From Frankiales bacterium (lineage in GTDB: Bacteria > Actinomycetota > Actinomycetes > Mycobacteriales > SCTD01), in assembly GCA_025465465.1 (NCBI GenBank), contig JAODND010000091.1:20850-84849 (forward strand): a stretch of 64,000 nucleotides of DNA, read 5' to 3'. Positions 1 through 15,912 of this stretch are shown here, in pieces. The position numbers and the translations under genes are program-made. Numbering within the stretch: the stretch's first letter is position 1; each line of letters starts with the position of its first letter. The notes below the pieces were generated by a model, which was given only the letters and a program-made list of their open reading frames with translations, was not told the origin of the DNA and did not search any database.

Positions 1-313
1 CCGAGCCAGCGCATGCAGTGGGTGACTCGTCGGGGGCGGCGATCCCAAGGGCGAGCGGACCGAGCAAGCTGACGCCCGCCTCCTCGAACAGCGCTGCAGC
101 CTCCACGAACTCGAAGGCCCCACCGCCCAGCTGCTTGCTCAGGTGCGGAGCCCACAGCCCCTCGGCCTTCCCGAGGGCTTGGACCTCGATGCGCATCGCG
201 TCGTCGAACGACAGGAACGCCCGGGCCTCGAGGGGCACGACCTGCTCGCGCACGAACGTCTCGATCCGCGCCCTGAACGCCTCCGCCTCAGGCGACGGGT
301 CGAATCCTGGCAC
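1..313 (-). CDS. acyl-CoA dehydrogenase, N-terminal fragment (gene continues past window start)
   Basis: Not in the ORF track because no stop lies in the window. My translation of the minus strand from GTG (313-311) gives VPGFDPSPEAEAFRARIETFVREQVVPLEARAFLSFDDAMRIEVQALGKAEGLWAPHLSKQLGGGAFEF..., which resembles an ACAD N-terminal domain. It begins 4 nt after the stop of the upstream SDR. Confidence 0.6.
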   Translation of the reverse strand, partial: MPGFDPSPEAEAFRARIETFVREQVVPLEARAFLSFDDAMRIEVQALGKAEGLWAPHLSKQLGGGAFEFVEAAALFEEAGVSLLGPLALGIAAPDESPTACAGS

Positions 314-317
314 GCGT

Positions 318-1232
318 TCAGGACGCGCCGTGCGGGACGGGACGGTCGAACGCCGCCTCGAGCACGTCGCGCTCCTGCTCGGCGCTCATCGGCACGGCGT
401 AGTCCGCTTCGGAGCAGATCGTCGCCCAGTGGTCGCGGACATCCTCGAGCGTCAGCGACGGCGAGTAGTAGCCGGGGCCTTCGGCGATGAAAACCCGGGC
501 GACCCGGCCGGCGGCCGCGGAGAGGATCTCGCCTGAGGCGTCACAGGACTCGTGGGCCAGGTACGCCACGACGGGGGACACCAGAGCCGGGTCGAGCCGC
601 CGCTCCCAGTCCTCGTCAAGCAGACCAGCGGACATGGTGGTGGCCGCGATGGGCGCGACGACGTTCGCGCGAATCCCGTATTTCGCACCCTCGAGAGCGA
701 GCACCCGCGTCATCCCGACGAGCGCCATCTTGGCCGCGCCGTAGTTGGTCTGGCCGAAGTTGCCGAACAACCCTGCCGCCGACGTCGTCGAGATGATGCG
801 TCCGTACCCCGCGTCCTTCATGTGCTCGTAGGCCGGCCGGGTCACGAAGAACGCGCCACGCAGGTGCACGTCGAGGACCGGGTCGAGCAGGTCGGCGGTC
901 ATCTTCGGGAAGGTCCGGTCGCGCACGATGCCGGCGTTGTTCACGACGATGTCGAGGCGGCCGTAGGTCGTGATCGCCGTGTCGACGATCGCCTGTCCCC
1001 CGGCGGGTGTCGCGACGGAGTTGCTGTCCACGACGGCGGAGCCGCCCGCGGCCACGATCTCATCGACGACCTGCTGGGCAGGTGCCGGCTCGCCGTCCTT
1101 GCCGGGCGCGAGGTCGTTCACCACCACGGCCGCTCCCCGGGCCGCGAGCAGCAGGGCGTGCGCACGACCGAGCCCTGCCCCCGCACCTGTGACGATGGCG
1201 ACACGATCGTCGAAGCGAAGTTCCATGCTCAT
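318..1232 (-). CDS. SDR oxidoreductase, MFE-2/Hsd4A-type (3R)-hydroxyacyl-CoA dehydrogenase-like
   Basis: Part of ORF 318..1349. Internal start MSMELRFDDRVAIVTGAGAGLGRAHALLLA at 1232 forms an ATGA overlap with the upstream stop (1229). It has the TGxxxGxG Rossmann motif and NNAG, with an extended C-terminal domain as in MFE-2 dehydrogenases. Confidence 0.8.
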   Translation of the reverse strand: MSMELRFDDRVAIVTGAGAGLGRAHALLLAARGAAVVVNDLAPGKDGEPAPAQQVVDEIVAAGGSAVVDSNSVATPAGGQAIVDTAITTYGRLDIVVNNAGIVRDRTFPKMTADLLDPVLDVHLRGAFFVTRPAYEHMKDAGYGRIISTTSAAGLFGNFGQTNYGAAKMALVGMTRVLALEGAKYGIRANVVAPIAATTMSAGLLDEDWERRLDPALVSPVVAYLAHESCDASGEILSAAAGRVARVFIAEGPGYYSPSLTLEDVRDHWATICSEADYAVPMSAEQERDVLEAAFDRPVPHGAS

Positions 1233-2389
1233 GCTCCAGGGTCGAGGGCAACGGCACCAGATGCCGCGAGCTCGCGGATCGAGTCGTGCGGGTAGCCGAG
1301 CTCCTCGAGCAGGGCCTGCGTGTGCTCGCCGAGACGCGGTGCCCTGCACCGGATCGGGCTCGCCGTGCCGTCGAAGAGAAGGGGCTGCCTCACGACCCTC
1401 GTGCCGGGCTGGTCGGGGAGCTCGACGATCATCCCGCGGGCCACGACCTGGGGGTCGCCCGCGACGGCCTGGTCGTCATGGACAGGGCCGAAACCGACGC
1501 CACCCTCGACCAGACGCCGTTCGAGCTCCGGCCAATCGGTGTCCCGGAAGCAGGACTCGAGACGTGTGGTGATCTCGGCCGCGCGCGACTCTCGCTGCAC
1601 CGTGGTGAGCGGTGCGAGATCGGGCAGCCCGAGCGCCTCGCACAGCGCGCTCCACTGGTGGTCCTCCCCCGCGATGCTGAGGGTCACCAGCTGGCCGCTC
1701 GCTGTCGTGAACACCCCGTAGCCCGGATCCACGGGGGGGTACGGAGCGGGGTCGAGTCCGTTCAGCGACGATGTCAACGCCGTGCTCCGCCAGCTCACGA
1801 GCGCATCGAGCATCGAGACGTCGAGGTAGCTCGACAGCTGGTGCCGCTCCCTGCCGAGCAGCGCGCTCACGATCCCGAGCGCCGCGAACATGCCGGAGGC
1901 GAGGTCGGCCAGCGGCAGCGGTGCGGGCGCAGGGACGTCGCCGGTGACCAGCCCCGCCAGTCCCTGCACCGAGATGTCGTGGCCCCCGCGGTCCCCCAGT
2001 GGTCCGGTCTGCCCGAAGCTCGAGATCGAGGCATAGATGACTTTCGGCAGCTGGGTCTGCACCTCTTTGGCGCCGATCCCCAGCCGGTCGACGACGCCCG
2101 GCTTGTAGCCCTCCACGATGACGTCGGCGGTGGCGGCCAGCTTCCAGAAGACCTGACGCCCCTCGGTCGACTTCAGGTCGAGCGCCATCGACCGCTTGTT
2201 GCGGTTCAGGCCCTCGAAATGCCCGGAGAACCGTCGGGTCGGGTCCCCCCCGGCGGGCCGCTCGACCAGCACGACATCGGCACCGAGATCCGCGAGCAGC
2301 ATGGTGGCGAACGGACCGGGGTACTGCTCGGCCAGGCTGAGCACGCAGATCCCGGCGAGCGGACTGTCCGACCGAGGGTCTGCTGTCAC
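1229..2389 (-). CDS. family III CoA-transferase (CaiB/BaiF type)
   Basis: 386 aa. N-terminus LAGICVLSLAEQYPGPFATMLLADLGADVVLVERP is typical of family III CoA-transferases. The GTG start overlaps the DUF35 stop (GTGA). Confidence 0.85.
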   Translation of the reverse strand: MTADPRSDSPLAGICVLSLAEQYPGPFATMLLADLGADVVLVERPAGGDPTRRFSGHFEGLNRNKRSMALDLKSTEGRQVFWKLAATADVIVEGYKPGVVDRLGIGAKEVQTQLPKVIYASISSFGQTGPLGDRGGHDISVQGLAGLVTGDVPAPAPLPLADLASGMFAALGIVSALLGRERHQLSSYLDVSMLDALVSWRSTALTSSLNGLDPAPYPPVDPGYGVFTTASGQLVTLSIAGEDHQWSALCEALGLPDLAPLTTVQRESRAAEITTRLESCFRDTDWPELERRLVEGGVGFGPVHDDQAVAGDPQVVARGMIVELPDQPGTRVVRQPLLFDGTASPIRCRAPRLGEHTQALLEELGYPHDSIRELAASGAVALDPGA

Positions 2390-2862
2390 TGGGCTGGGCT
2401 GAGCGGCTCGAACCAGAAGTCGGTGACTCTTCCCTCCGGATCGTCACGGAAGACCATCTTCACCCGCGCCTCGATGCGGAGCGCTTCGTTGAGACCGTCC
2501 TCGAGGTCGAGGTCGACCCCCTGCAGGTAGTTGCAGATCGCCGACGTTGCTCCGTCCGGTCGGACGTACGCAACTGCGTACGGCACCGGAGGCGAGCCGG
2601 CGAACGGAGCGGTCACCACGGTGACTGCCTCGATGACTCCCTCCTTGCCGACCTCGACGAGCTCCTCGACCGGGATGAAGCAGAACTCGCAGAACGACTT
2701 CGGCGGGACGGCGACCCGACCGCACTGCCCGCAGCGGCACCCGAGGATGCGCTGCTCGCGCAGAGCGTCGAAGAAGGCAGAGGCGAAGGTGCCGATCGTG
2801 TACTGGTAGGGGATGCGCCACTCGCCGGGGAGGCGGGCGGGCACGGTCGTCGGATGAGTCAT
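2386..2862 (-). CDS. DUF35 OB-fold / zinc-ribbon acyl-CoA-associated protein
   Basis: Internal ATG at 2862 (MTHPTTVPARLPGEW...). It has a CxxC...CxxC ribbon (CRCGQCGRVAVPPKSFCEFC) followed by OB-fold-like sequence. The upstream part of ORF 2386..3033 overlaps the thiolase gene and was dropped. Confidence 0.8.
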   Translation of the reverse strand: MTHPTTVPARLPGEWRIPYQYTIGTFASAFFDALREQRILGCRCGQCGRVAVPPKSFCEFCFIPVEELVEVGKEGVIEAVTVVTAPFAGSPPVPYAVAYVRPDGATSAICNYLQGVDLDLEDGLNEALRIEARVKMVFRDDPEGRVTDFWFEPLSPAQ

Positions 2863-2875
2863 GGTCCGCTCGCTC

Positions 2876-4057
2876 TCAGTCGGGTTCCGCGGCAAGCACC
2901 GCGGCTGTGTAGAACTGGTCGATGCCCCCGCAGGCGGTGGCGAGCGCCAGCCGGGCACCGTCGACCTGGTGGTCGCCGGCCCTGCCCATGACCTGCAGCG
3001 CTGCCTCCCCGAAGCGGACGAGACCGGTGGCACCGATCGGGTTCGCGGTCATGCAGCCACCTGACGGCACAACGGGGATGTCACCGTCCATCGCGGTGGC
3101 GCCGGTCTCGACGAGCTCGATGCCGCGTCCATGAGGAGCGAGCTGCAGCGACTCGTAGTAGGCGATCTCGAGGTTGGCGAACGGCGCGTAGACCTCGACG
3201 ACGTCGAGCTCCCGGCGGGGGTTGGTGATGCCGGCCTCGCGATAGGCCTCTGTCGCCGCCCAGGCTTGTGCCCGCGGGATGGCGAAGTCCGACTCGTCGT
3301 CGTGCAGCCGGTCGCCGATGCGGTAGACGTCAGCCGCACAGCCCAGGCCCTTCACATAGGCGGCGTGGGCCTTGGTCTTCGCCTTGGCCGCGGTCGTCAT
3401 CACCACGGCTGCCGAGCCGTCCGACCGGGGACAGGTGTGCAGCAGCCGCAGCGGGTGCGCCAGCGACCTCGACTCCTTGACGTCCTTCTCGGTGATCGTC
3501 TTCTGCAGGTGTGCGTATGGGTTGCGCAGCGCGTTCGTGAAGTTCTTCACCGAGATCCACGCCATGTGGTCCTCGGTCAGCCCGAAGTACTTCATCTGCC
3601 GGGACGCGACCAGCGCGATGCCGGTGATGACGTTGAGCTGCACGTCCTGCTCGTAGATCGGGTCGAAGATCGTCGTGAAGACTGCCTGTGCATCGGCCGT
3701 CTCCGACGTGCGCTGCAGGCCCACGACAAGGACGGTCTCGTACACGCCCGCACTGATGAGGCGGGCGGCAGCGAGCGGGCCCGAGCCGCCGGTGGCTCCG
3801 CCAGTGTGCACCCGGATCACGGGCTTCCCCACGCCCCCGAACGCGTCGAGACACCATCGCTCCGGCTCGTACACGCCCTCGAAGACCTCCGGGGCGGAGG
3901 CGAAGACCACGGCATCGATCTCGGACAACTCGGTGTCTGCGTCAGCCAGCGCCCGGCTGACCGCCTCGAACACCAGCTCCGGCGTACCCACGTCGAGCCG
4001 GGACGTCTTGTAGCGGGTCTGCCCAAAGCCGAGAACGGCTGCCTGCGGGCCGCTCAC
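2876..4057 (-). CDS. thiolase-fold protein (SCP-x/Ltp-like); nucleophile loop apparently lacks Cys
   Basis: 393 aa with thiolase-like motifs (LLHTCPRSDGSAAVV, GGCMTANPIGATG, ATACGG). The expected nucleophile segment reads HTGGATGGSG, with no Cys, and the GHP motif reads ANP. The GTG start overlaps the upstream stop (GTGA). Confidence 0.8.
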   Translation of the reverse strand: MSGPQAAVLGFGQTRYKTSRLDVGTPELVFEAVSRALADADTELSEIDAVVFASAPEVFEGVYEPERWCLDAFGGVGKPVIRVHTGGATGGSGPLAAARLISAGVYETVLVVGLQRTSETADAQAVFTTIFDPIYEQDVQLNVITGIALVASRQMKYFGLTEDHMAWISVKNFTNALRNPYAHLQKTITEKDVKESRSLAHPLRLLHTCPRSDGSAAVVMTTAAKAKTKAHAAYVKGLGCAADVYRIGDRLHDDESDFAIPRAQAWAATEAYREAGITNPRRELDVVEVYAPFANLEIAYYESLQLAPHGRGIELVETGATAMDGDIPVVPSGGCMTANPIGATGLVRFGEAALQVMGRAGDHQVDGARLALATACGGIDQFYTAAVLAAEPD

Positions 4058-4953
4058 GGTGTCTCCACCACGGCGGCATAGGCGGTCTCCATGCTGAGTC
4101 CTCCTCCAGCGATGACCAACGTGATCCCGCTGTCAGGCGGCTCCAGCCCGCTCAGCAGCGCGTGCAGCCCCGCCGCATAGCCGAGGTCCACGTAGCGCTC
4201 AGGTCGTCGGGCGATCAGGTCGACAGGGACGCCGACGGCGTCCGCGATGGGGGCGTCATCCAGGTGCTGCATGCCCGCGACCCGGACCCGGCTGACATCA
4301 CCGGCCTTGCGGCCCGCGCTCGTCAACGCCGCGGCTGCCGCCTTCGCGACCGGCGCGAGCACGGGGGCCCCGGGCCGCAGATAGGGCCCCGTCGAGGCGC
4401 CGATCCCGACGACGTCGGCGCGGCGGCGACGCCCCGGGGTGAGGCGCGTGAGGATGAGCGCCGTGGCGACATCGACGCTGCGCACGGCCGTCGGAGCCAA
4501 CCGGGTCGGCGCCGCTTGCTCAGCCGACGTGCGCAGTGCGAGCGCCACCCCGGGATGGAACCCCAGGCCCCGCGAGTACACCGGCTCGAGGCCCAGCGGC
4601 AGGATCGCGTCGCGGTCGGCGTCACTCAGCTTGCTCCACGTGCAGACGATGACGGCGTCGGAGACCCCCGACTCGATGTCGGCCACCGCGAGCATGAGGG
4701 CGGCGAGGCTGTCGGTGCAGACGCGCATCTCGTTGCGTCGGAACGAGCCGGTCGAACCGGTGAGGGTCATGGTCGAGATGGCTCGTCCGTCGTACAGGTC
4801 GGACGCCGCCATGAACGAGCCCGAGACGTCCGCGATGCCCAGGCCGGCGTCACGCAGCGCTCCCGACGTGGCCGTGTAGATCATCTCGTCGAGGGCCATG
4901 GGGATGTCGGGCTCGGGCGGCAGGACGTGATAGCCCGCGATGACCGCTTGCAT
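4054..4953 (-). CDS. short degenerate thiolase-fold protein (probable partner subunit)
   Basis: 299 aa. The N-terminal half aligns by eye to a thiolase N-domain (RVCTDSLAALMLAVADIESG). The C-terminus ends IAGGGLSMETA without the usual His/Cys motifs. It is tightly coupled to the downstream thiolase-fold gene. Confidence 0.65.
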   Translation of the reverse strand: MQAVIAGYHVLPPEPDIPMALDEMIYTATSGALRDAGLGIADVSGSFMAASDLYDGRAISTMTLTGSTGSFRRNEMRVCTDSLAALMLAVADIESGVSDAVIVCTWSKLSDADRDAILPLGLEPVYSRGLGFHPGVALALRTSAEQAAPTRLAPTAVRSVDVATALILTRLTPGRRRRADVVGIGASTGPYLRPGAPVLAPVAKAAAAALTSAGRKAGDVSRVRVAGMQHLDDAPIADAVGVPVDLIARRPERYVDLGYAAGLHALLSGLEPPDSGITLVIAGGGLSMETAYAAVVETP

Positions 4954-4990
4954 GTGGGTCGCACCTACTCTCTCGGCGTCAGTTGTTGCG

Positions 4991-5404
4991 TCATGCGGGC
5001 AGCTCGGCGATGGCCGTGCCTGAGAACACGAGCTGACCGTGCTGGTTCAGCGTCTGGACTTCGAAGGAGTGCAGGACTCCCGTGGCTGAGGGGGTGGTCC
5101 CTGTCAGGGTCACCGTGCCGGTGAGCGCGTCGCCCGGCACGACCGGGGCGTGGAAGCGGCCGGTGTACTCGCGCAGGCTCTCGACGCCGACCAGGTCGGT
5201 GACGAGCCTGGCGCTCAAGCCCATGGTGAACATGCCGTGCGCGATGACCGAGCCATAACCGGCGCGCTCGACCGCGTAGGGCTCGTCGTGATGGAGGGGG
5301 TTGTAGTCGCCTGAGGCGCCCGCGTACTGCACGATCGTGGCGCGGGAGATCTCTGGGTGCAGCAGCACGGTGCGCGAGCAGCCAGGCGCAAGGGTTCCGG
5401 TCAT
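4991..5404 (-). CDS. MaoC-like (R)-specific enoyl-CoA hydratase (hotdog fold)
   Basis: Internal ATG at 5404 (MTGTLAPG...) forms an ATGA overlap with the upstream gene. The motif YAGASGDYNPLHHDEPYA is the MaoC dehydratase signature. Confidence 0.8.
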   Translation of the reverse strand: MTGTLAPGCSRTVLLHPEISRATIVQYAGASGDYNPLHHDEPYAVERAGYGSVIAHGMFTMGLSARLVTDLVGVESLREYTGRFHAPVVPGDALTGTVTLTGTTPSATGVLHSFEVQTLNQHGQLVFSGTAIAELPA

Positions 5405-5856
5405 CGATCGGCACCGATCTCGACCTCGACGGCAACGGAGCTGACGATGACCGCGTCGTCGCCGTCGTGGAAGTCGGTGACGATCTCCCGGAAGCTCAGG
5501 ACGCCGCCAGCACGGCTGGGCTTCTGCCAGCTGTTGCCGGTGCGCTTCCGGGCCACGAGAACCTCTCCGACGCGCACCGGCCGGGTGTAGGTGAAGCGCT
5601 GCTCGGCATGGAGCACGACCGTGCCCGGCCGGTCGACGGTGGCCGCCTTCGCCGAGGCGGGCCAGGGCTCCCCCGGTCGCGGGCGCCACGGATAGCCCGG
5701 GATGAACTGCTGGAGGGCCTCGGTGAAGGTGGGCGGCGCGGCGACGCCGGCCTCGCCGCGGTAGGCGGGGTTGTCGTCGCAGACGGCTCGGGCAAACAGC
5801 ATCACGTGCACCGGGTCGACCGGGAAGCGGAGCTCAGCCACCAGAACGCACCGCAC
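5401..5856 (-). CDS. MaoC N-terminal-type hotdog protein (ChsH1-like hydratase subunit)
   Basis: 151 aa. FARAVCDDNPAYRGE... resembles the non-catalytic or partner hotdog subunit of heteromeric hydratases. The start is GTG at 5856, with an alternative GTG at 5841. Confidence 0.75.
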   Translation of the reverse strand: MRCVLVAELRFPVDPVHVMLFARAVCDDNPAYRGEAGVAAPPTFTEALQQFIPGYPWRPRPGEPWPASAKAATVDRPGTVVLHAEQRFTYTRPVRVGEVLVARKRTGNSWQKPSRAGGVLSFREIVTDFHDGDDAVIVSSVAVEVEIGADR

Positions 5857-6967
5857 CAGCGAGCAGCGCGCGGCGGTGTGCCGAGGGTGACCCGAACGCG
5901 ACGCGTCCAGCGACCGCGCGCCGCAAGTACAGATGAGCCGGGTGCTCCCAGGTGTAGCCGATGCCCCCCAGCGTCTGGATCATCGTCCCCGCCGACTTGT
6001 AGGCGGCGTCCGAGGCGGCGGCCTTGGCGACATGCGACATGCTCACGGCCTCAGAGCTCGACATGGCCAGCTCCCGAAGGGCGTAGGACGTCACGCACTT
6101 CGCGGCCTCGTTGTCCATGTAGGCGTTGACGAGCTGGTGCTTCACGGCCTGGAAGCTGCCGATCTGGCGACCGAACTGCTCCCGCTGCAGGGCATACCGG
6201 ACGGCGACATCGACGCAGTGCTCGGCGATGCCCACGAGCTCAGCGGCCAGGCACGTGGGCACGAGGACGCGCAGGCGGTCCAGGACCCGTTGGCCGGCGT
6301 CGAAGGCGCCCAGTGGTCGGGCAGGTGCGCCTGCGAAGTCGATCTGCGCCGAGCTACGGGTCAGGTCCATCCCACCGGTCGCCGTGCGGACCTGCCCTTG
6401 GGCATCCCGGTCCACGGCGAAGCACATCGTCCCGTCGTCCGCCGCGGCGAGGACGACGAGCAGGTCCGCCTCGCAGCCGTCCCACACGTCCTCGGCCCGG
6501 CCGTCGAGCTGCCAGCCGTCGGGGCCCCGGGTGGCACGGACCCCCTGCGCGGCCATCAGGCCGTCGGTGCCCAGTGCCAGCCCTGCCAGGCTGGCCGTCA
6601 GCTTCCCCTGCACGATCCGCGGCAGCAGGTCCTGTTGCGCGACCTGGTCGCCCGACGCGAGCAGCGCCTGCCCGGCGAGCACGACGGTCGAGAAGTATGG
6701 ACCGGAGTAGAGGGCGCGCCCGAGCTCGGTGAGGACGACCCCGAGGAACGACAGGGGGGCGCCCGTGCCTCCGAGCTCGACGGGTGTGGCGACCCCCAGC
6801 ACGTCGACCTCGGTCGACAGCCTCGTCCAGAGTTCCGCGTCCGTCGGCGCGCACTGGTCGACGGCGGCGAGCTGACGCGACGCACTGGTGCTGGGCGCAA
6901 GGACCAGACGCAGGGTCTGCTGCAGCTGCCGGTGCTCTTCGTCGTGGTGCCGGCCGGAGCTGCTCAT
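5834..6967 (-). CDS. acyl-CoA dehydrogenase family protein (second subunit of a probable heteromeric pair)
   Basis: Internal ATG at 6967 (MSSSGRHHDEEHRQLQQTL...) forms an ATGA overlap with the upstream ACAD. The C-terminal TLGGIGYTWEHPAHLYLRRA is ACAD C-domain-like. Confidence 0.8.
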   Translation of the reverse strand: MSSSGRHHDEEHRQLQQTLRLVLAPSTSASRQLAAVDQCAPTDAELWTRLSTEVDVLGVATPVELGGTGAPLSFLGVVLTELGRALYSGPYFSTVVLAGQALLASGDQVAQQDLLPRIVQGKLTASLAGLALGTDGLMAAQGVRATRGPDGWQLDGRAEDVWDGCEADLLVVLAAADDGTMCFAVDRDAQGQVRTATGGMDLTRSSAQIDFAGAPARPLGAFDAGQRVLDRLRVLVPTCLAAELVGIAEHCVDVAVRYALQREQFGRQIGSFQAVKHQLVNAYMDNEAAKCVTSYALRELAMSSSEAVSMSHVAKAAASDAAYKSAGTMIQTLGGIGYTWEHPAHLYLRRAVAGRVAFGSPSAHRRALLAGAVRSGG

Positions 6968-8172
6968 CTCGGCTCCTTGGGGAGGCCCAGCAGCCGCTCC
7001 CCGATGATGTTGCGCTGGATCTCGCTCGAGCCGGCGTAGATGGTCGCGGCCCGAGCCCGGAGGAAGTAGTCGGCCCACACGCTGGGCGTGTTGGCGCTGC
7101 CGGCCTCGGCCGCCGGGAAGCTGACGCCCTGCAGCCCGGTGCCGCTCGCTGTGGTGGCTGCGGATCCGAGGATGTCCATCGCGAGCTCCGTCGTCATCTG
7201 CAGCCACTCGCTCCAGAACAGCTTGTGCAGCGAGGACTCAGCGCCGATGTCCCGACCACCCAACCAGCCGTCGACGGCCTGCCGTCCGAGGCAGCGCAGC
7301 TCCTCGACGCGCTGCAGGCTGTACGCGAGCCGCTCCGCCAGCACGGGGTCGGCGAGCTGCCCGCGCTCCGCCGCGAGATCGTGCAGCCGGTCGAAGTCTC
7401 GGCGGAAGCGGGTGCCCAGGGTGGCGACGGCCTCACCTCGCTCATAGCCGAGCAGGTCCATGGCGACCGCCCAACCGCCGTTCACAGGTCCCACGACGGC
7501 ATCGAGCGGGCAGCGGGCGTCGGTGAAGAAGACCTCGTTGAACTCTTCCTCGCCGGTGAGCGTCTTCAGCGGGCGGACCTCGATGCCGGGCTGGTCGAGC
7601 TCGCAGAGCAGGAGGCTGATGCCGCTGTGCTTGCCGGCCGAGGGGTCGGTCCGGCTGAGGACGAAGATGTGCGTCGCGAGGTGCCCGTACGAGGTCCAGA
7701 TCTTCTGGCCGTTGATGGTCCAGTGGTCGTCGCTCGCGACAGCCCGTGTGCGCAGGCCGGCCAGGTCCGAGCCGGCGTCCGGCTCGGAGAACCCCTGGCA
7801 CCAGACGTCGTCGCCGGCCAGGATCCGCGGGAGGTAGTGACGGCACTGCTCCTCCGTCCCCCACCGAAGCAGGGTGGACCCCAGCATCTGGATGCCGAAG
7901 TTGTCGTTCAGTCCGCCCTGGGGAACACCTACCGCGGTGCACTCCTCGGCGACGATGAGCTGCTCCAGCGGACCGAGCCCAGCACCTCCGTACTGCGTCG
8001 GCCAGGTGAGGGCCAACAGCCCGTTGCTGTGCATCAGCGCGCGCCACTCCTCGCGGAACTGGTCCTGCGCCGCAGGCAGCAGGGCACCGATGCCCGTCCA
8101 GTCGGCCGGCAGGTGCTCGCCCAGGAACGCGCGAACGCGGTCCCGGAACACCGATCCGGCAGGTGCGCTCAC
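6964..8172 (-). CDS. acyl-CoA dehydrogenase
   Basis: The GTG at 8172 forms a GTGA overlap with the thiolase stop. ACAD motifs are present (TWPTQYGGAGL, CQGFSEPDAGSD, IYAGSSEIQRNIIGERLLGLP). Confidence 0.85.
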   Translation of the reverse strand: MSAPAGSVFRDRVRAFLGEHLPADWTGIGALLPAAQDQFREEWRALMHSNGLLALTWPTQYGGAGLGPLEQLIVAEECTAVGVPQGGLNDNFGIQMLGSTLLRWGTEEQCRHYLPRILAGDDVWCQGFSEPDAGSDLAGLRTRAVASDDHWTINGQKIWTSYGHLATHIFVLSRTDPSAGKHSGISLLLCELDQPGIEVRPLKTLTGEEEFNEVFFTDARCPLDAVVGPVNGGWAVAMDLLGYERGEAVATLGTRFRRDFDRLHDLAAERGQLADPVLAERLAYSLQRVEELRCLGRQAVDGWLGGRDIGAESSLHKLFWSEWLQMTTELAMDILGSAATTASGTGLQGVSFPAAEAGSANTPSVWADYFLRARAATIYAGSSEIQRNIIGERLLGLPKEPR

Positions 8173-9320
8173 AAGCGTTCGATGATGGTGGCGTTCGCCT
8201 GGCCGCCGCCCTCGCACATCGACTGCAAGCCGTAGCGGGCGCCCCGACGCTCGAGCTCGTGCAGCATCGAGACCATGATCCGGGCGCCACTCGCACCGAT
8301 CGGGTGCCCAAGAGCGATGGCGCCCCCGTTGACGTTGATGCGCTCGCTCTCGGCGCCGATCTCCTGCTGCCACGCCAGCACGACAGAGGCGAACGCCTCG
8401 TTGATCTCGAAGAGGTCGATGTCCCCGACCTCGAGGCCAGCACGGCTGAGGGCAGCGTGCGTTGCGGCGATGGGGGCGGTCAGCATGTAGACCGGGTCGT
8501 CACCGCAGACCGACATCGTGTGCACCCTCGCCCGCGGGGTCAGCCCCAGGTCCTTGACGGCTCGCTCGGAGCAGACCAGCAGGGCGGCAGCCCCGTCACT
8601 GATCTGGCTCGAGAGCGCCGCGGTGATGACGCCGCCCTCGATGAGCGGCGGCAAGGACGCCATGCGTTCGAGGCTCGTGTCGGGCCGGGGGCACTCGTCC
8701 TGGGAGCCGCCGCCGAACGCCACGATCTCGCGCTCGAAGTAGCCCCGGTCCCTGGCAGCTGCGGCGCGCCGGTGGCTCGCCAGGGCGAACTCCTCCATCT
8801 GAGCGCGGGTCAGCCCCCACTTGGAGGCGATCAGCTCCGCGGCGCGGAACTGGTTGATGTCCTGGCCCCCGTAGCGCCGTTGCCACTTCTTGCTGGTGGC
8901 GAACGGGTCCGCATGCAGCAGGTCCGCACCCGCCGACCAGGCGATGTTGAGGGGCACCACGCTCATGAGCTGGACGCCACCAGCGACGACGACGTCCTGC
9001 ACGCCGCTCATCACGGCCTGGGCCGCGAAGTGCACCGCCTGCTGGGACGATCCGCACTGTCGATCGATCGTGACGCCGGGCACGGACTCGGGAAGGCCGG
9101 CAGCCAGCCAGGACAGCCGTGCGATGTCGCCCGCCTGCGGTCCGACGGCGTCCGTCGCGCCGAGGATGACGTCGTCGACGCGTGCGGGGTCGATCCCGGC
9201 CCGACCGATCAGGGCACTCAGCGTGTGCGCCGCGACGTCCACCGGGTGCTCCGCGCTCAGACTGCCGCCGCGCCGTCCGACCTGCGTGCGGACCGCTTCG
9301 ACGATGAATGCCTCGGGCAT
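8169..9320 (-). CDS. acetyl-CoA C-acyltransferase (thiolase II, FadA-like)
   Basis: Internal ATG at 9320 (MPEAFIVEAVRTQVGRRGG...). It has the active-site context TIDRQCGSSQQA and the C-terminal MCEGGGQANA. Confidence 0.9.
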   Translation of the reverse strand: MPEAFIVEAVRTQVGRRGGSLSAEHPVDVAAHTLSALIGRAGIDPARVDDVILGATDAVGPQAGDIARLSWLAAGLPESVPGVTIDRQCGSSQQAVHFAAQAVMSGVQDVVVAGGVQLMSVVPLNIAWSAGADLLHADPFATSKKWQRRYGGQDINQFRAAELIASKWGLTRAQMEEFALASHRRAAAARDRGYFEREIVAFGGGSQDECPRPDTSLERMASLPPLIEGGVITAALSSQISDGAAALLVCSERAVKDLGLTPRARVHTMSVCGDDPVYMLTAPIAATHAALSRAGLEVGDIDLFEINEAFASVVLAWQQEIGAESERINVNGGAIALGHPIGASGARIMVSMLHELERRGARYGLQSMCEGGGQANATIIERL

Positions 9321-9366: not shown

Positions 9367-9786
9367 TCAACCAAACGATTGGTAGTCAACGTCTCGTGAT
9401 GGCTCGCAGAGGTCCGCGAGCCGGCCCAGGGCCCGCCCGACGGACAGCGCGAGGCCTGCCAGCAGGTCGTCGGGCTCGAGCTCGGTCGTGTAGCTGACGG
9501 AGCACCGGTCGTCGCCCTCGGCCGTCACCTCGACCGTGCCGAGGTGCAGGTCGACCGCGAGTCCTTCCGTGATCCGGTACTGCAGCAGCCGGCGCTCGGG
9601 GTCGTTGACCAGGATCTGTTCAACGATCACCGCGCCGGAGTGCAGCTCGCAGACCCGCTGCGCGCCCTCCATCCGGCAGCTCTGCACGCTCGGAAACCAC
9701 TGGGGCAGCGCGCTCGCATCGCCGACGATCGCCCAGACGGACTCCGCTGCCGCCGCGAGCTGCCTGACCTGGCGATCCACGCTCAC
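9367..9786 (-). CDS. SRPBCC (polyketide cyclase/dehydrase-like) ligand-binding protein
   Basis: The GTG at 9786 is preceded by GGAGG 4 nt upstream. The sequence VDRQVRQLAAAAESVWAIVGDASALPQWFPSV... is typical of the SRPBCC N-terminus. Confidence 0.7.
   Translation of the reverse strand: MSVDRQVRQLAAAAESVWAIVGDASALPQWFPSVQSCRMEGAQRVCELHSGAVIVEQILVNDPERRLLQYRITEGLAVDLHLGTVEVTAEGDDRCSVSYTTELEPDDLLAGLALSVGRALGRLADLCEPSRDVDYQSFG
9370..9383. promoter_or_regulatory. candidate operator, site 1: ACCAAACGATTGGT
   Basis: A 14-bp palindrome 49 nt upstream of the thiolase start (9320), with flanks ca...ta conserved across the other sites. Confidence 0.6.
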
Positions 9787-9803
9787 GATACCTCCACGAG
9801 ACA

Positions 9804-9817
9804 ACCAACCGTTTGGT
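9804..9817. promoter_or_regulatory. candidate operator, site 2: ACCAACCGTTTGGT
   Basis: Lies in the 81-bp divergent gap between the SRPBCC start (9786) and the acyl-CoA ligase start (9868). Confidence 0.6.
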
Positions 9818-9867: not shown

Positions 9868-11400
9868 ATGACGGAGCTCTCACTAGGTGAGGTGTTCGCG
9901 GCGCGCGCCCGTGACCTCGGCGCGTCGCCCGCTCTGATCGCCGACGGCGTCGAACTGAGCTTCGCCGAGCTCGACGACCGCGCCGGACGGCTGGCCGGTG
10001 CTCTGCGCGCCGCGTCGGTGGGGACCGGCAGCAGGGTCGGTTACCTCGGCAGGAACAGCTCCGAGTACGTCGTGTCGCTCGCCGCGTGCGGCAAGCTCGG
10101 CGCCGTCATGGTCCCGCTCAACTGGCGGCTGGCGCACGCAGAGCTGGTGGCGATCCTCGCCGACGCGCAGGCTGTTCTCGTCATCGTCGACGACGAGTTC
10201 ACCGCCGCCGCCGAGACCTTGCGCGCAGATCGCGGCGTCGCGGCCGACGTTCGGCTCGTCGACACCCGCTCGCCAGCCGGCCCCCGCTGGTACGACGGCC
10301 ACGCTCCGCACCTGCCGACGTCGCTGCCGCCCGCCGAGGCGGTTGCCCTCCAGCTGTACACGTCCGGCACCACCGGACGGCCGAAGGGCGTCCTGTCGAG
10401 CCACGTCTCGGTGATCGAGTCACTCAGGCTGCTCAGCCGCGTCGCCGGGATCCAGCGGTCCTCGGTCAGCCTGTGCACGCTGCCGACGTTCCACATCGGA
10501 GGGACGTCCTGGACACTGGCCGGCATCTTCGCCGGCTGTCCGACGGTGCTCCTGCGGGAGACCGACGCCGAGGCCGTGCTCGACGCCGTGGCGGCGCAGC
10601 ACGTCACGACGATGATCGCCGTGCCCGCCGTGATCCAGCTGCTCGTCGAAGCACTGCACGACGGCGACACCCGAGGGAAGACGCTCGAGCGGCTCTACTA
10701 CGGCGGTGGCCCGATGACCGGGCCGGTGCTGGAGCGCGCGCTCGCGGCGTTCGGCTGCGAGTTCGTGCAGGGCTTCGGCATGACCGAGCTGCCCTTGATG
10801 CTCGCGCTGACCCCTGACCTGCACGTGCCCGGCTCGCCGCTGCTGCTCTCGTGCGGACAGCTGGTGCCCGAGACCGAGGCGCGCATCGTCGACCCGGCGA
10901 CCGAGGCCGAGGTGGGCCCCGGCAGCGTGGGCGAGCTGTGGGTCAGGTCGTCGCGCACGATGCTCGGCTACTGGAACCAACCCGACGAGACGGCAAAGGC
11001 TCTCGTGCCCGGCGGCTGGCTGCGCACCGGCGACGCGATGCACGTGGACGAGGACGGCTTCTACTTCCTCCACGACCGCATCAAGGACGTCATCATCTCG
11101 GGCGGCGAGAACATCTACTCAGCCGAGGTCGAGAACGTGCTCATGGCCCATCCGGCGATCCTCGAGTGTGCCGTCATCGGCGTGCCGTCTGCTCGATGGA
11201 CCGAGACGGTCAAGGCCGTCGTGGTGCTGCGGGCAGGGCACTCGGCCGCTGACAGCGAGCTCATCAGCTTCTGCAGGGAGCGACTGGCCGGCTACAAGTG
11301 CCCGACCTCCGTCGAGGTCGTCGCCGCTCTGCCCCGGACCCCTTCGGGCAAGGTGCGGAAGGCCGACCTCCGAAAGCCGTACTGGCCTGCGACCCGCTAG
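9868..11400 (+). CDS. AMP-dependent acyl-CoA synthetase/ligase (FadD-like)
   Basis: 510 aa. It has the AMP-binding motif YTSGTTGRPKGV, plus GELWVRS, TGDA and PSGKVRK. Confidence 0.9.
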   Translation: MTELSLGEVFAARARDLGASPALIADGVELSFAELDDRAGRLAGALRAASVGTGSRVGYLGRNSSEYVVSLAACGKLGAVMVPLNWRLAHAELVAILADAQAVLVIVDDEFTAAAETLRADRGVAADVRLVDTRSPAGPRWYDGHAPHLPTSLPPAEAVALQLYTSGTTGRPKGVLSSHVSVIESLRLLSRVAGIQRSSVSLCTLPTFHIGGTSWTLAGIFAGCPTVLLRETDAEAVLDAVAAQHVTTMIAVPAVIQLLVEALHDGDTRGKTLERLYYGGGPMTGPVLERALAAFGCEFVQGFGMTELPLMLALTPDLHVPGSPLLLSCGQLVPETEARIVDPATEAEVGPGSVGELWVRSSRTMLGYWNQPDETAKALVPGGWLRTGDAMHVDEDGFYFLHDRIKDVIISGGENIYSAEVENVLMAHPAILECAVIGVPSARWTETVKAVVVLRAGHSAADSELISFCRERLAGYKCPTSVEVVAALPRTPSGKVRKADLRKPYWPATR

Positions 11401-12044
11401 CGCGGACGGGCCGCCGCGGCAGGCTCCGCGACACCGAGGACGGCTGCCAGCGCGAGCTGTGCGTAGCTCTTCGCGACCTCGGCCGGGGAGTCCTTCCCAT
11501 CCGGCCGGTACCAGTCGGCCACCCAGTTGGTCCCGCCGATGACGAACGACGACACGAACCGCTGGTTGACGGTGCCCTGGAGCCCCTTGAACTTGTACGC
11601 CGCGGCGATCAGGTCTCGCAGGTAGCGGTCGTACTGACGGCGGCGCTCCACCAGCTTCGCGCGCCGCTCACCTGTGAGATAGCGCCAGTCCCTGAAGTAC
11701 AGCGACTGCAGCTCCAGGTTCTGCAGGGTGTTGGCCACACCGCGCTCGAGGTAGGCCCGCAGCCGCTCGACGGGGTCGACGTCGAGCGCCTCGAGCTCTC
11801 GCATCATCAGCTCGGCGTCGCCATGCGCGTTCTCGAAGATCTGGAAGAGCAGGTCTTCCTTGGAGTCGATGTAGTGGTAGACGCTGCCCTTCAGCACGCC
11901 CACGGCATCCGCCACGTCCTGGATGCTGGCTGCCGCATAGCCCTTCTCCGCGAAGATGGCCAGAGCAGCCTGCAGGATCTCCGCTTCGCGGTTGCGGCGA
12001 CCGGCCGGCGCAGCACCGGACTTCCGCGCGTTCGACTTCATCAC
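11397..12044 (-). CDS. TetR/AcrR family transcriptional regulator
   Basis: 215 aa. The N-terminal HTH reads ILQAALAIFAEKGYAAASIQDVADAVGVLKGSVYHYIDSKEDLL. It converges on the ligase gene with a 4-nt overlap. Confidence 0.9.
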   Translation of the reverse strand: MMKSNARKSGAAPAGRRNREAEILQAALAIFAEKGYAAASIQDVADAVGVLKGSVYHYIDSKEDLLFQIFENAHGDAELMMRELEALDVDPVERLRAYLERGVANTLQNLELQSLYFRDWRYLTGERRAKLVERRRQYDRYLRDLIAAAYKFKGLQGTVNQRFVSSFVIGGTNWVADWYRPDGKDSPAEVAKSYAQLALAAVLGVAEPAAAARPR

Positions 12045-12095
12045 GCCCCCAGACGACCGTTCGTTCGGTACGCACCCTAGCCCGCGGAGCCTCGA

Positions 12096-12935
12096 TCAGA
12101 GCCCAGCTGCGTCGGCCATGACGGCAAGAGCTTCCAGGGACTTGTCGCGAGGCAGCGTCTCCAGCAGGAACACGCACACGTCCACGCCCATGGCTTCGTA
12201 GGACGCGATCTGCTCGGGGTCCGCCGCCATGCCGAACAGGTAGACGGGGACGCGCCCCCGCCCGAGCTCCTCCGACCTCCGGCGCAGTTCCGAGATCCGC
12301 TCCGGCAGGTCCGGCATCGGCGGCCAGCCTGGGTTGGGTGCCCACGCATCTGCGTACTCGAGGACCCGGTCGACGACCGTCGGCCCCATGCCACCGAGGA
12401 CGATCGGCGGGTGGGGAAGCTGCGCGGGTCTGGGCCGCACCGTGGTGGGCGCGATGGTCACGAGCTCCCCGTCGAAGCTGGCCACCTCCTCGGACCACAG
12501 CTGCGTGATGGCGCGCACCCGCTCACCGAGAAGCTTCGTGCGCGTGCGCGGATCCGTGCCGTGCTGCCGCATCTCGTCGACGTTCCAGCCCGCGCTCACG
12601 CCGAACACGAACCGCCCCCCGCTCAGCTGATCGAGGCTGGCGACCGACTTGGCGGTGTGGATCGGGTCACGCTGGACGAGCAGGCACATGCCGGTGCCCA
12701 CTCGCAGTGTCCGGGTTGCCGCGGCGGCAACCGTCAGGGCGACGAACGGGTCGTAGGTGTGGAAGTACTCGGGCGGAAGGTCTCCCCCACCGGGGTAGGG
12801 CGTCTCCCGGCTGGCAGGGATGTTGGAGTGCTCCGTCAGGAACAAGTAGTCGAACCCGTGTCCCTCCAGGCCCACGGCCAGGTCATCCGGCCGAATGCTG
12901 TCGTCGGTCGCGAACGTGACGATCCCGAACTCCAC
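12096..12935 (-). CDS. LLM-class (luciferase-like) F420-dependent oxidoreductase
   Basis: 279 aa. MEFGIVTFATDDSIRPDDLA...FDYLFLTEHSNIP...SGGRFVFGVSAGWN resembles the F420-dependent LLM subfamily. The GTG start is preceded by AAGGAG. Confidence 0.85.
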   Translation of the reverse strand: MEFGIVTFATDDSIRPDDLAVGLEGHGFDYLFLTEHSNIPASRETPYPGGGDLPPEYFHTYDPFVALTVAAAATRTLRVGTGMCLLVQRDPIHTAKSVASLDQLSGGRFVFGVSAGWNVDEMRQHGTDPRTRTKLLGERVRAITQLWSEEVASFDGELVTIAPTTVRPRPAQLPHPPIVLGGMGPTVVDRVLEYADAWAPNPGWPPMPDLPERISELRRRSEELGRGRVPVYLFGMAADPEQIASYEAMGVDVCVFLLETLPRDKSLEALAVMADAAGL

Positions 12936-14444: not shown

Positions 14445-14798
14445 TCAGCGAGCGATGATCCCGTGCAGCTGGAGGTTCTTGCGACGCCGCTCCTGGGCGT
14501 CGGGGCTGATGAGCTCCGGGGTCCATTCCAGCCCGTGGTCCATGGAGACCGTGACGGACGCGACCCCGGGCAGCTCCGCGAGCCGCCGCTTGATCTCGAC
14601 GTCGAAGTAGCCGACGTTGTGGCACAGCGGCGCGGTCAGCCGCAGCGTGACATGGAGCCGCCCGTCGTCATCGAGGTCGACGGCCTTGACGAGGCCCATC
14701 TCCTCGATGCTCATCGGTGTGCCGGACGCGACGCTGCACGGGTCGCCTATCCCGTGCAGGATCTCGCGGACCTGGGCGTCGACTCCGGACTCAGCCAA
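14445..14798 (-). CDS. DUF59 / MIP18-family metal-sulfur cluster assembly-like protein
   Basis: 117 aa. VREILHGIGDPCSVASGTPMSIEEMGLVKAV...LTAPLCHNVGYF is the DUF59 (PaaD/SufT-like) pattern. It overlaps the upstream amidohydrolase by 8 nt. Confidence 0.75.
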   Translation of the reverse strand: MAESGVDAQVREILHGIGDPCSVASGTPMSIEEMGLVKAVDLDDDGRLHVTLRLTAPLCHNVGYFDVEIKRRLAELPGVASVTVSMDHGLEWTPELISPDAQERRRKNLQLHGIIAR

Positions 14799-15912
14799 CG
14801 CCGGCCGCCTCGGGCAGGGGCGTCATGACCGCGTCCTTGAGGGGCGTCGTCGAGTACGGGATCGGCAGAGGGCCGTGGTGCGTGAACTCGTCATCCTTGA
14901 TGCCTGCGGCGAGCTTGTCGACGTCGAAGCCGTGCAGGCGCGCGATGTTGCCGCTGAGGATGGCCTTCTTGTGCTCCCGGGTGAGCTGCGGGATGGGGAA
15001 GAAGATGCCCTTGCGAGCCATCTGCTCCTCGGTGAACTGGAAGTCCATGAAGGCCTCCAGCCCGGGCCGCGGGTGCGAGTTCATCGCCCCGGTCGCCCAG
15101 TAGATGCGCTCCAGGGCGGCCTCGCCAGCGACGCTCAACAGGCCCGCGAGCTGCTCGCCGAAGACGCTGGGCCGCATGGTCAGGACGAGGTTCATCGTCT
15201 CGAAGTTGACCCAGATGTTCGGGAAGCGGGCGAGCAGCCAGGCAGTCTCCTCGACGAAGGACAGGCCACCATGGACGATCGAGAAGTTGAGGTCCGGGAA
15301 GGCCGCTGCGGCACCCTCGACATCGACCGGGTTGAACGCATTGCCGCCCGACGGCGATGGTCCCATGGGCAGCGACTTGTGGATGGCGACGGACCGCAAG
15401 CCGAGCTCGCGGGCCTTCTCGTAGAGCGGGAACCCGATCTTCGGGTCGTCCATCCGCCACGGGGTGACCGTGCCCTCGTTGTAGCTGACCGGGTAGAGCT
15501 TGAGACCGACAGGGTTGTTCATCATCTCGACCTGCCGCTCCATCTCGCCCAGGGGGTCGGGGCGCAGCGGGTCGATGGACACGTAGGAGCCGATGAAGCG
15601 GTTCGGCCAGCGCTTGGTCGCCTCGAGCGCCTTGGCCACGCTGGAGTAGCCGTCCTTGAAGAAGTAGATGGGCACCGGGTGGAAGATCGCGACGTCGGTG
15701 TTCGACTCGCGGAACATGATGTCCGCCGTCTCCTCGACGCTCCAGTCGCGCAGCGTCTTCTCCCCCTCGAGGTCGTAGCCGGCCGGCTGCCCCGCAAAGA
15801 AGCTCGCCTGGAGCTGGCGCAGTGACTCCGCGTACTCCGGGGAGGCCATGTTGCCCTCGGTCATGTCGAACGCATGGGCCACGCCATCGATGACAAACAG
15901 TCCGTCCTGCAT
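14791..15912 (-). CDS. amidohydrolase-2 family protein (metal-dependent decarboxylase/lactonase superfamily)
   Basis: 373 aa. The N-terminal FVIDGVAHAF and the later IHKSLPMG, VHGG and WATGAM patterns fit a TIM-barrel amidohydrolase_2 protein. Confidence 0.8.
   Translation of the reverse strand: MQDGLFVIDGVAHAFDMTEGNMASPEYAESLRQLQASFFAGQPAGYDLEGEKTLRDWSVEETADIMFRESNTDVAIFHPVPIYFFKDGYSSVAKALEATKRWPNRFIGSYVSIDPLRPDPLGEMERQVEMMNNPVGLKLYPVSYNEGTVTPWRMDDPKIGFPLYEKARELGLRSVAIHKSLPMGPSPSGGNAFNPVDVEGAAAAFPDLNFSIVHGGLSFVEETAWLLARFPNIWVNFETMNLVLTMRPSVFGEQLAGLLSVAGEAALERIYWATGAMNSHPRPGLEAFMDFQFTEEQMARKGIFFPIPQLTREHKKAILSGNIARLHGFDVDKLAAGIKDDEFTHHGPLPIPYSTTPLKDAVMTPLPEAAGVG

Follow-up and report, generated by a model that had tools for sequence, protein, structure and literature searches.

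A likely catabolic operon for bulky acyl-CoAs in a Frankiales bacterium encodes a cysteine-less thiolase-like pair together with a DUF35 protein

A stretch of 64,000 nucleotides from a Frankiales bacterium (GenBank assembly GCA_025465465.1, contig JAODND010000091.1, positions 20,850 to 84,849; hereafter, the window) begins with eleven genes on the minus strand, g1–g11, located between positions 2 and 9320. On balance, we favour the reading that these genes form a TetR-repressed catabolic operon, which shortens a bulky or branched acyl-CoA in a beta-oxidation-like manner using two chemistries of C–C bond cleavage. The substrate acid is probably terpenoid-like or ring-derived. The first chemistry would be conventional thiolysis, whereas the second is assigned to a cysteine-less thiolase-like pair, g6 and g7, that probably cleaves the C–C bond by a retro-aldol reaction. 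The enzyme classes are assigned by sequence comparison, and from them we infer the order of steps, the composition of the complex, and the nature of the substrate.

The G+C content of the window is about 69%, and raw lists of open reading frames (ORFs) are swamped by spurious frames. The coding frames, one per stretch, were selected by the third-position G+C content (GC3, 0.86–0.91), followed by mapping of the start codons; domains were assigned by Pfam and NCBIfam scans of the window proteins, with Pfam applied to 56 ORFs across the window. The gene order and domain assignments proposed in the initial annotation of this DNA hold for all eleven genes (Table 1), as does the observation that most junctions are ATGA or GTGA overlaps of 4 nt. 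Such overlaps are found at six of the ten junctions (g1/g2, g2/g3, g4/g5, g6/g7, g8/g9, and g9/g10), compared to 7 of 30 same-strand junctions in the rest of the window (Fisher p = 0.05). In addition, g3 and g4 overlap by 8 nt, and gaps of 37, 13, and 4 nt separate g5/g6, g7/g8, and g10/g11, respectively. This is the normal packing of a tight operon in an actinobacterium with 70% G+C and not an oddity. The overlap of g8 and g9 requires an upstream GTG as the g9 start; the automatic call on an identical metagenome contig places this start later, and the RefSeq annotation of the Rhodococcus g9 orthologue has the 4-nt overlap as well.

The genes g2 and g3 are predicted to encode a two-subunit acyl-CoA dehydrogenase (ACAD) of the ChsE/IpdE/PimCD kind, with the catalytic glutamate in g2 only. 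The closest solved structures are IpdE1 (Tcur3483 of Thermomonospora curvata, 2.5e-50) and ChsE4 of Mycobacterium tuberculosis (1e-45) for g2, and IpdE2 (Tcur3481, 6wy8_A, 1e-30) and ChsE5 (4x28_D, 7e-25) for g3, so the paired ACADs seen initially are indeed nearest to known heteromeric pairs. The best NCBIfam matches are pimC_large for g2 (245 bits vs. a cut-off of 624) and IpdE2 for g3 (135 bits vs. 450), the latter also matching pimD_small (97 bits). The two genes are neighbours in all orthologous loci. Residue E244 of g2 is aligned with E247 of ChsE4, which we take to be the catalytic base, and a manual motif alignment of g3, for which the automatic pairwise alignment is poor, shows no glutamate at either of the canonical base positions.

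A similar division of roles is predicted for the two MaoC hotdog proteins, again as first proposed. The hydratase-2 Asp/His motif is present in g5 (SGDYNPLH, residues 31–38), and g4 has DDNPAY without the catalytic histidine; the two genes overlap by 4–8 nt in the window and in loci L008 and L009. The best PDB matches of g5 are 5i7n, 4rv2_B, and HadB, no significant PDB sequence match was observed for g4, and no ChsH1 or ChsH2 chain is present among the PDB matches of either protein at E <= 1e-3. Hence g4/g5 are classified by sequence as a HadAB-like, double-hotdog MaoC pair with one catalytic and one non-catalytic subunit, and not as a ChsH1/ChsH2-like one.

The assignment of g10 as an MFE-2-type (Hsd4A-like) short-chain dehydrogenase/reductase (SDR) agrees with its PDB matches to 2et6 (3.8e-116), 3oml (5.4e-74), and 1gz6 (3.9e-73, residues 2–287 of 304 aligned); it scores under the cut-off of NCBIfam model PRK07791 (243.7 bits vs. 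373). For g9, family III CoA-transferases including SUGCT (2.4e-49), YfdE, Rv3272, and Frc are matched at 1e-45 to 1e-49, and the racemase AMACR at 5e-37, both kinds of matches being significant; the conserved aspartate is D138 in the GHD motif. The SUGCT match of g9 and the pimC_large match of g2 suggest dicarboxylic acyl-CoA intermediates. The thiolase g1 is the only operon protein over any curated equivalog cut-off, namely that of the generic acetyl-CoA C-acetyltransferase PRK07801 (619 bits vs. 591). With this exception, the operon proteins do not group with enzymes of straight-chain beta-oxidation.

These similarities raise the question of a steroid pathway, that is, a distant version of the igr/ltp/hsd4A genes for the side chains of sterols or bile acids, with the ring genes residing elsewhere in the genome. 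We consider this unlikely. It would account for the closest solved ACADs, for the MFE-2/Hsd4A-like g10, for the score of g1 on the FadA5 model, for a nearby cytochrome P450 resembling CYP125 and CYP142, and for the aldolase-like signature of g7. However, all steroid equivalog cut-offs are missed: besides the IpdE2 score of g3, g1 reaches 377 bits vs. 515 on the FadA5 model and g7 120 bits vs. 469 on the Ltp2-like PRK07855. Further, g4/g5 are of the HadAB kind, the transporter gene nearby is of the sugar type, and the P450 is as close to P450cin as to CYP125. Among the 56 ORFs scanned across the window, Pfam detected neither a Rieske oxygenase nor an extradiol dioxygenase nor any other gene for steroid rings, as had been noticed from the start, and neither ring-degrading nor Mce4 genes are present in the window or in 20–40 kb around the orthologous operons, including that on a Rhodococcus plasmid. 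Thus, of the suggested likeness to the igr/ltp genes, the logic stands, in particular given the aldolase tyrosine of g7, and the membership does not. Two other steroid systems were considered and set aside: the oestrogen aed cluster of Rhodococcus B50 has a different organisation, with a fused MaoC-DUF35 protein AedL, an Ltp2-like AedK, and oxygenases aedA and aedB (PMC8913865), and the bile-acid side-chain cluster of Sphingobium Chol11 is reported to have no hydratase, aldolase, or thiolase homologues.

The most distinctive part of the operon is g6-g7-g8. HMMER alignment of g7 with solved thiolases (7yvy, 6hsj, 6esq) places Gly87 at the position of the nucleophilic cysteine, Y290-A-P-F at the HDCF motif, and Asn339 at the histidine of the GHP motif. 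Since g7 lacks all thiolase catalytic residues, it is not a thiolase; of the initially proposed combination of a thiolase-fold protein and DUF35, the fold and the DUF35 are retained and the thiolase function is not. The retro-aldolases Sal and Ltp2 use a tyrosine at the first position of the same motif as the catalytic base (YDHF in Ltp2, YDCY in Sal), Sal has glycine at the nucleophile position, and the general acid is Cys304 in Sal and Tyr344 in Ltp2 (PMC12329534). Both of the former features are present in g7, as Tyr290 and Gly87. The signature HTGGATG...YAPF...NP is invariant in the clade of at least 60% identical g7 proteins and is retained in most of 113 relatives, down to 44% identity; glycine occupies the nucleophile position in 113/113 of them, and Cys335 and Cys376 are conserved in the close clade only. 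Moreover, no other protein of the operon is as conserved as g7, whose 78–90% identity between phyla argues for catalysis and against a dead scaffold.

The neighbouring g6 has only weak N-terminal thiolase matches in NCBIfam. Its AlphaFold2 model, built with 59 homologues (pLDDT 89, pTM 0.90), matches thiolases in a Foldseek search with probability 1.0 at 13–17% identity, the matches including MucABC and 6et9. As modelled, g6 has a thiolase fold in a degenerate form, in agreement with what the initial annotation had called it. The family has 30 invariant columns. The most conserved stretch, loop residues 48–72 (AASDLxDGRAISTMTLTGSTGSF), is also the one with the lowest model confidence (pLDDT 53–62), which would fit a loop that becomes ordered only against a partner or a substrate. 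Cys79, invariant in the short family and situated at a strand-helix junction in the model, was considered as a thiolase nucleophile and rejected, the profile alignment being ambiguous by three residues and the full-length partners described below having no cysteine. A correspondence of Ltp3/Ltp4 to the A/B pair is at most a tentative analogy: g7 scores 163 bits and g6 22 bits on NCBIfam models that we presume to represent Ltp3 and Ltp4, respectively, having picked them by matching model lengths to those of the Ltp proteins.

Distant relatives of g7 always occur in a trio consisting of a full-length thiolase-fold protein A (367–385 aa), a g7-like protein B, and a DUF35 protein; the five separate loci in which this was observed include one from Neobacillus niacini. 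The order fold-fold-DUF35 is seen in the window and in L005–L010, L011, L012, L013, L015, and L016, the 4-nt overlap of A and B is kept in L008, L009, L010, L015, and L016, and in some loci the trio is followed by a family III CoA-transferase. The shorter g6, lacking about 80 residues, aligns with the full-length A proteins through ASDxxDGRAISxM. The A proteins also lack the thiolase residues and have serine, alanine, or threonine where g6 has Cys79; therefore Cys79 does not represent an ancestral nucleophile. With a profile for the g6 family, 580 representatives out of 1.84 billion were retrieved at E <= 1e-3, and 363 at the stricter E <= 1e-10, about two dozen of the matched representatives having the short form. 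No NCBIfam model names the A or B family, and the annotation names are generic. Judged by these comparisons, g6-g7-g8 belong to a wider, so far uncharacterised three-gene module, A-B-DUF35. In locus L012 the neighbours of the trio are two ACADs and a crotonase, and genes for a hydroxyacyl-CoA dehydrogenase or a thiolase are missing from this block; the set matches the expectation for dehydrogenation, hydration, and retro-aldol cleavage.

The DUF35 protein g8 has a C4 zinc ribbon, CGQC-x10-CEFC, starting from residue 44. A stand-alone DUF35 protein acting with a thiolase-fold aldolase is known from ChsH4/Atf1 (PMC10398937). We suggest a heteromeric complex of g6, g7, and g8 in which catalysis is predicted to reside in g7. 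A bolder proposal, which we make only tentatively, is that this complex and the wider A-B-DUF35 family constitute a new class of heteromeric cysteine-free thiolase-fold lyases that perform retro-aldol cleavage of tertiary 3-hydroxyacyl-CoAs and thus unblock the beta-branches of terpenoid and alicyclic acids. Substrates may include (1-hydroxycycloalkyl)acetyl-CoA, hydrated ring-cleavage products of bicyclic monoterpenes of the 3,4,4-trimethylpimelyl-CoA type, and the side chain of abscisic acid. To our knowledge, no gene has been assigned to a (1-hydroxycycloalkyl)acetyl-CoA lyase activity. As for abscisic acid catabolism as the pathway of the operon, no genes are known for it, and we set it aside as pure speculation.

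It is improbable that g6-g7-g8 instead form an acyl-transferring or condensing complex of the PhlABC/MucABC or archaeal type, making the cluster biosynthetic, or perform Bbs-like thiolysis. The fold-fold-DUF35 order resembles that of phlACB, the PDB matches of g7 are PhlC, one MucABC chain, an archaeal thiolase, and BbsB, and those of the g6 model were given above, as was its invariant cysteine at the strand-helix junction. Tripartite complexes of this kind are established for PhlABC, MucABC, and archaeal thiolase/HMG-CoA synthase/DUF35 (PMC12329534; PMC12960953). On the other hand, the cysteine required by PhlC, BbsB, and thiolases is missing in g7, the wider A family has no counterpart of Cys79, and the context is catabolic, with FAD-dependent ACADs along with a CoA ligase, a transporter, a P450, and a FadR-like repressor. 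The BbsA and BbsB models yield 22 bits vs. 250 and 116 bits vs. 750, respectively, and the initially noticed likeness to the bbs benzylsuccinate operon fails at the key enzyme, BbsB being a true thiolase and g7 having no cysteine.

The operon is genuine and has spread horizontally, being found from actinobacteria to Sphingomonas. An exact copy of the g6 protein is encoded on soil-metagenome contigs, and a Frankiales metagenome-assembled genome (MAG) has 94–98% identity from the adjacent SRPBCC gene through g6, except for g4 (88%). The genes g1–g10 occur in unchanged order in Frankia sp. AiPs1, an Acidimicrobiaceae MAG, a Subtercola MAG, Rhodococcus qingshengii VT6, where they are situated on the 501-kb linear plasmid pLP1, and Sphingomonas oryzagri, an alphaproteobacterium. 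Micromonospora has a reduced set comprising only g6-g7-g8-g9 and an SDR. The shared order, together with identities that differ sharply from gene to gene (Table 1), indicates that the module is selected as a unit and has moved between phyla. No publication describing this cluster was found in the literature, including studies of terpenes and DUF35 and of cyclohexaneacetate and naphthenic acids. On pLP1 (locus L014, 18169–59335) the genes flanking the operon encode three mycofactocin-coupled SDRs, two flavin-dependent luciferase-like monooxygenases (LLMs), a flavin reductase, an integrase, and a ferredoxin-fused FAD oxidoreductase, as would suit a catabolic island that is mobile.

If the operon were an ordinary one for fatty-acid beta-oxidation, with redundant paralogues and with g6, g7, and g8 as inactive relics or merely structural proteins, this would suit the generic equivalog match of g1, the FadR-like TetR, and the neighbouring FadD, which falls just under the NCBIfam long-chain ligase model PRK06187 (473.5 bits vs. 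476). Such a reading is hardly credible, as the other enzymes are specialised (a heteromeric ACAD, MaoC and not crotonase, an MFE-2 SDR), neither g7 with its interphylum identity nor g6 with its invariant columns is relic-like, and the ten-gene order is kept across phyla.

The functional unit reaches past position 9320. FadD, SRPBCC, and TetR (TetR_C_24) adjoin the operon in full loci of sufficient length, FadD being present in all full orthologous loci and SRPBCC in L004–L009, and the TetR orthologues adjoining the operon in other taxa are 50–60% identical. Comparison of the DNA upstream of g1 orthologues revealed a palindrome, ACCRA-N4-TYGGT, of which the window contains two exact sites vs. 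0.12 expected in 64 kb: ACCAAACGATTGGT in the g1 promoter and ACCAACCGTTTGGT in the divergent SRPBCC/FadD promoter region. With up to one mismatch, 13 sites are found vs. 5.25 expected, three of them intergenic and upstream of TetR, the amidohydrolase_2 group, and the ABC transporter (Table 1). In other taxa the motif is situated at the same position upstream of g1 orthologues and, in Subtercola, Sphingomonas, and Micromonospora, also upstream of g6 orthologues. On pLP1 it is situated between the two flavin-dependent LLM genes, which are divergent, and upstream of both the flavin reductase and a ferredoxin-ACAD-NTF2 group. In L014 coordinates, palindromes are located at 11660, 14412, 30518, and 33071. 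The KstR2 operator, ANCAA-N4-TTGNT, has a similar layout of arms and a different centre. A scan for sigma-70 promoters and terminators of the window yielded no promoters and one terminator-like site, inside g10, vs. 1.9 expected.

The palindrome is probably the operator of the adjacent FadR-like TetR, acting as a repressor. Its distribution suggests a link of the operon to FadD, SRPBCC, and TetR and, less firmly, to the P450, the F420-dependent oxidoreductase, the mycofactocin-type SDR, and the ABC transporter, up to about 20.8 kb, so that the unit is probably a regulon of about 21 kb.

These observations may be combined into the following pathway. The P450cin/CYP125-like P450, mycofactocin-type alcohol dehydrogenases, F420- or flavin-dependent LLMs, and the amidohydrolase would produce an acid from an alicyclic or terpenoid-like precursor, and FadD would activate it to the CoA thioester. 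One cycle of dehydrogenation by g2/g3, hydration by g4/g5, oxidation by g10, and thiolysis by g1 would release acetyl- or propionyl-CoA. At a fully substituted beta-carbon, i.e., a ring carbon or a beta-branch, hydration would give a tertiary alcohol that cannot be oxidised; the putative g6-g7-g8 complex would then cut the tertiary 3-hydroxyacyl-CoA through retro-aldol chemistry, yielding a ketone and a short acyl-CoA. The CoA-transferase g9 may re-activate a carboxylated product or move CoA onto it; this role and the PimCD-like ACAD jointly hint at intermediates that are dicarboxylates. A CoA thioester is the probable inducer, with the FadR-like TetR as its sensor.

Several points weigh against this pathway. 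Firstly, g7 lacks the known general acid, having Pro292 where Ltp2 has histidine and Sal has cysteine, and Asn339 at the position of Tyr344 of Ltp2. Secondly, Cys79 of g6 is not conserved in the wider A family, and its structural equivalence to the thiolase nucleophile is ambiguous. Thirdly, g9 could be a racemase and not a transferase. Fourthly, the accessory genes vary by taxon, the transporter being of the CUT2 type here and of the branched-chain amino-acid type in Micromonospora, and the three one-mismatch operator sites may partly be due to chance.

The accessory genes suggest that the pathway starts from an alcohol or ketone of an alicyclic or terpenoid-like kind. The P450 is about equally similar to P450cin and CYP125 (Table 1), and orthologues of the P450 and LLM genes are located near the operon in L009 and L006. 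Carveol dehydrogenase is a member of the mycofactocin-coupled SDR family. Directly upstream of the P450, the DUF59 gene, encoding a PaaD-like small protein, overlaps the amidohydrolase_2 gene by 8 nt (14445–15912); this pairing has no NCBIfam name, and a lactonase or hydratase role would be a guess.

Table 1. Predicted genes of the operon and its surroundings, with operator sites. Identities are those to the window proteins across taxa.
Feature	Position	Strand	Predicted assignment	Basis or remark	Identity
g1	8169-9320	-	FadA-type 3-ketoacyl-CoA thiolase	First gene of the operon; Pfam Thiolase_N + Thiolase_C	73-80%
g2	6964-8172	-	ACAD, alpha (catalytic) subunit of the heteromeric pair		64-74%
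g3	5834-6967	-	ACAD, beta subunit	No Acyl-CoA_dh_M Pfam match	37-54%
g4	5401-5841	-	Non-catalytic hotdog (MaoC-N) partner of g5	Pfam FAS1_DH_region 1.3e-10	41-60% (g4/g5)
g5	4991-5404	-	Catalytic MaoC (R)-specific enoyl-CoA hydratase subunit	Pfam MaoC_dehydratas 7.7e-22	41-60% (g4/g5)
g6	4054-4953	-	Truncated thiolase-fold partner A	299 aa; no Pfam match	49-63%
g7	2876-4057	-	SCP2-type thiolase-fold protein B, putative retro-aldolase subunit		78-90%
g8	2386-2862	-	Stand-alone DUF35	158 aa; Pfam zf-ChsH2 (zinc ribbon) + OB_ChsH2_C (OB fold)	66-77%
g9	1229-2389	-	Family III CoA-transferase	386 aa; Pfam CoA_transf_3 1.4e-86, model positions 1-366 (full length)	
g10	318-1232	-	SDR, MFE-2-type (3R)-hydroxyacyl-CoA dehydrogenase	304 aa	68-78%
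g11	2-313	-	Further ACAD, N-terminus	Cut by the window edge; Pfam Acyl-CoA_dh_N 6.6e-07	
SRPBCC	9367-9787	-	Polyketide_cyc2 ligand-binding protein	Pfam 4.5e-17; GTG start after GGAGG	
FadD	9868-11400	+	Acyl-CoA synthetase, FadD type	Divergent from the operon; Pfam AMP-binding 1.8e-77	
TetR	11397-12044	-	TetR regulator (TetR_C_24, FadR-like)	Pfam/NCBIfam	
LLM	12096-12935	-	F420-dependent LLM oxidoreductase	Over the F420-dependent family model	
P450	13150-14418	-	Cytochrome P450	Best matches P450cin 2e-57, CYP125 1e-55	
DUF59	14445-14798	-	PaaD-like small protein		
Amidohydrolase	14791-15912	-	amidohydrolase_2	Domain match	
SDR	16026-16838	-	Mycofactocin-type SDR	Over the mycofactocin-coupled SDR model	
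ABC transporter	16890-20526	-	CUT2-type	Sugar-type	
Operator 1	9370-9383		Exact palindrome ACCAAACGATTGGT	g1 promoter on the minus strand, between -35-like TTGACT and -10-like TAACGT	
Operator 2	9804-9817		Exact palindrome ACCAACCGTTTGGT	Divergent SRPBCC/FadD promoter region	
One-mismatch site	12056-12069		Intergenic	Upstream of TetR	
One-mismatch site	15946-15959		Intergenic	Upstream of amidohydrolase_2-DUF59-P450-LLM-TetR	
One-mismatch site	20725-20738		Intergenic	Upstream of the ABC transporter	

The remaining part of the window is of a housekeeping nature, including a UPF0182 gene. The region 25404–32256 has the look of gamma-glutamylation-type amine catabolism, with genes for an amino-acid permease, a Peptidase_C26 gamma-glutamyl hydrolase, a GntR regulator, a glutamine-synthetase-like protein, an aldehyde dehydrogenase, and an SDR. 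It is followed by a complete kdpABC-kdpDE potassium uptake system on the minus strand (32311–40210), in a stretch where the GC skew is positive (about +0.10), and by a mutagenesis-type cassette (imuB-dnaE2; 40617–46022) of an unannotated 203-aa ORF, an ImuB-like protein with the IMS domain, and a DnaE2-type polymerase III alpha subunit. A lone gene for a crotonase-family enoyl-CoA hydratase (46076–46906) is located far from the operon, with no operator motif near it.

Beta-oxidation is blocked at fully substituted beta-carbons, and the known bypasses are the Atu/Liu carboxylation route and the steroid aldolases Ltp2 and Sal. If the proposed lyase is real, the cysteine-free YAPF-containing A/B pair with a stand-alone DUF35 would constitute a third bypass of the beta-branch block, the 21-kb TetR regulon would represent a mobile pathway that turns a cyclic terpenoid into central metabolites, and a gene-level handle would be gained on the poorly mapped late degradation of terpenoid, alicyclic, and naphthenic acids. 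The uncharacterised cysteine-free A-B-DUF35 module is the part most worth attention, and its wider family is small. The cultured hosts (R. qingshengii VT6 with pLP1, Frankia sp. AiPs1, and S. oryzagri), together with the conserved operator, make the question directly testable.

PimCD and SUGCT-type transferases provide the best NCBIfam match of g2 and the best NCBIfam and PDB matches of g9, respectively, but the scores are far under the equivalog cut-offs (245 vs. 624 and 197 vs. 750), and the pimA, pimB, pimE, and pimF context is missing. The bbs operon (BbsEF, BbsG, BbsH, BbsCD, BbsAB) likewise brings together an ACAD, an SDR, a family III CoA-transferase, and a DUF35 with a thiolase-fold protein. 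It differs in that BbsB is a true thiolase, BbsH a crotonase, and BbsEF and BbsCD are heteromers; the Bbs models score far under their cut-offs, and the window operon has no glycyl-radical enzyme and an aerobic context. The adjacent fold, fold, and DUF35 genes of the PhlABC, MucABC, and archaeal complexes are matched by g6 in structure and by g7 in sequence. However, these complexes have the catalytic cysteine in at least one subunit and form C–C bonds, whereas the A and B families lack the canonical nucleophile and are found in a degradative context.

With igr and the other cholesterol genes (ChsE1-E2, ChsE4-E5, IpdE1-E2, ChsH1-H2, Hsd4A, FadA5), the operon shares a pair of ACADs of which one is the catalytic subunit, a hotdog hydratase that also consists of a pair, an MFE-2-type dehydrogenase, a thiolase accompanied by an aldolase-like enzyme, and subunit genes that are translationally coupled. 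In contrast, it shows no equivalog-level orthology to them, its hydratase is HadAB-like, a family III CoA-transferase is part of the operon, the steroid-ring, Mce4, and KstR elements are missing, and it occurs in Sphingomonas and on a Rhodococcus plasmid. Finally, Ltp2-ChsH2 and Sal-Shy resemble g6-g7-g8 in the SCP2-thiolase fold with the nucleophilic cysteine lost (glycine, as in Sal), in the tyrosine at the first position of the HDCF motif, in the C4-zinc DUF35 partner, and in the location of the aldolase directly after a MaoC hydratase and a heteromeric ACAD. The differences are the YAPF motif of g7 in place of YDHF or YDCY, accompanied by the loss of the known general acid (Tyr344 or Cys304), the encoding of DUF35 by a separate gene, g8, as in ChsH4/Atf1, and the likely pairing of g7 with the truncated thiolase-fold protein g6 in place of a homodimer.

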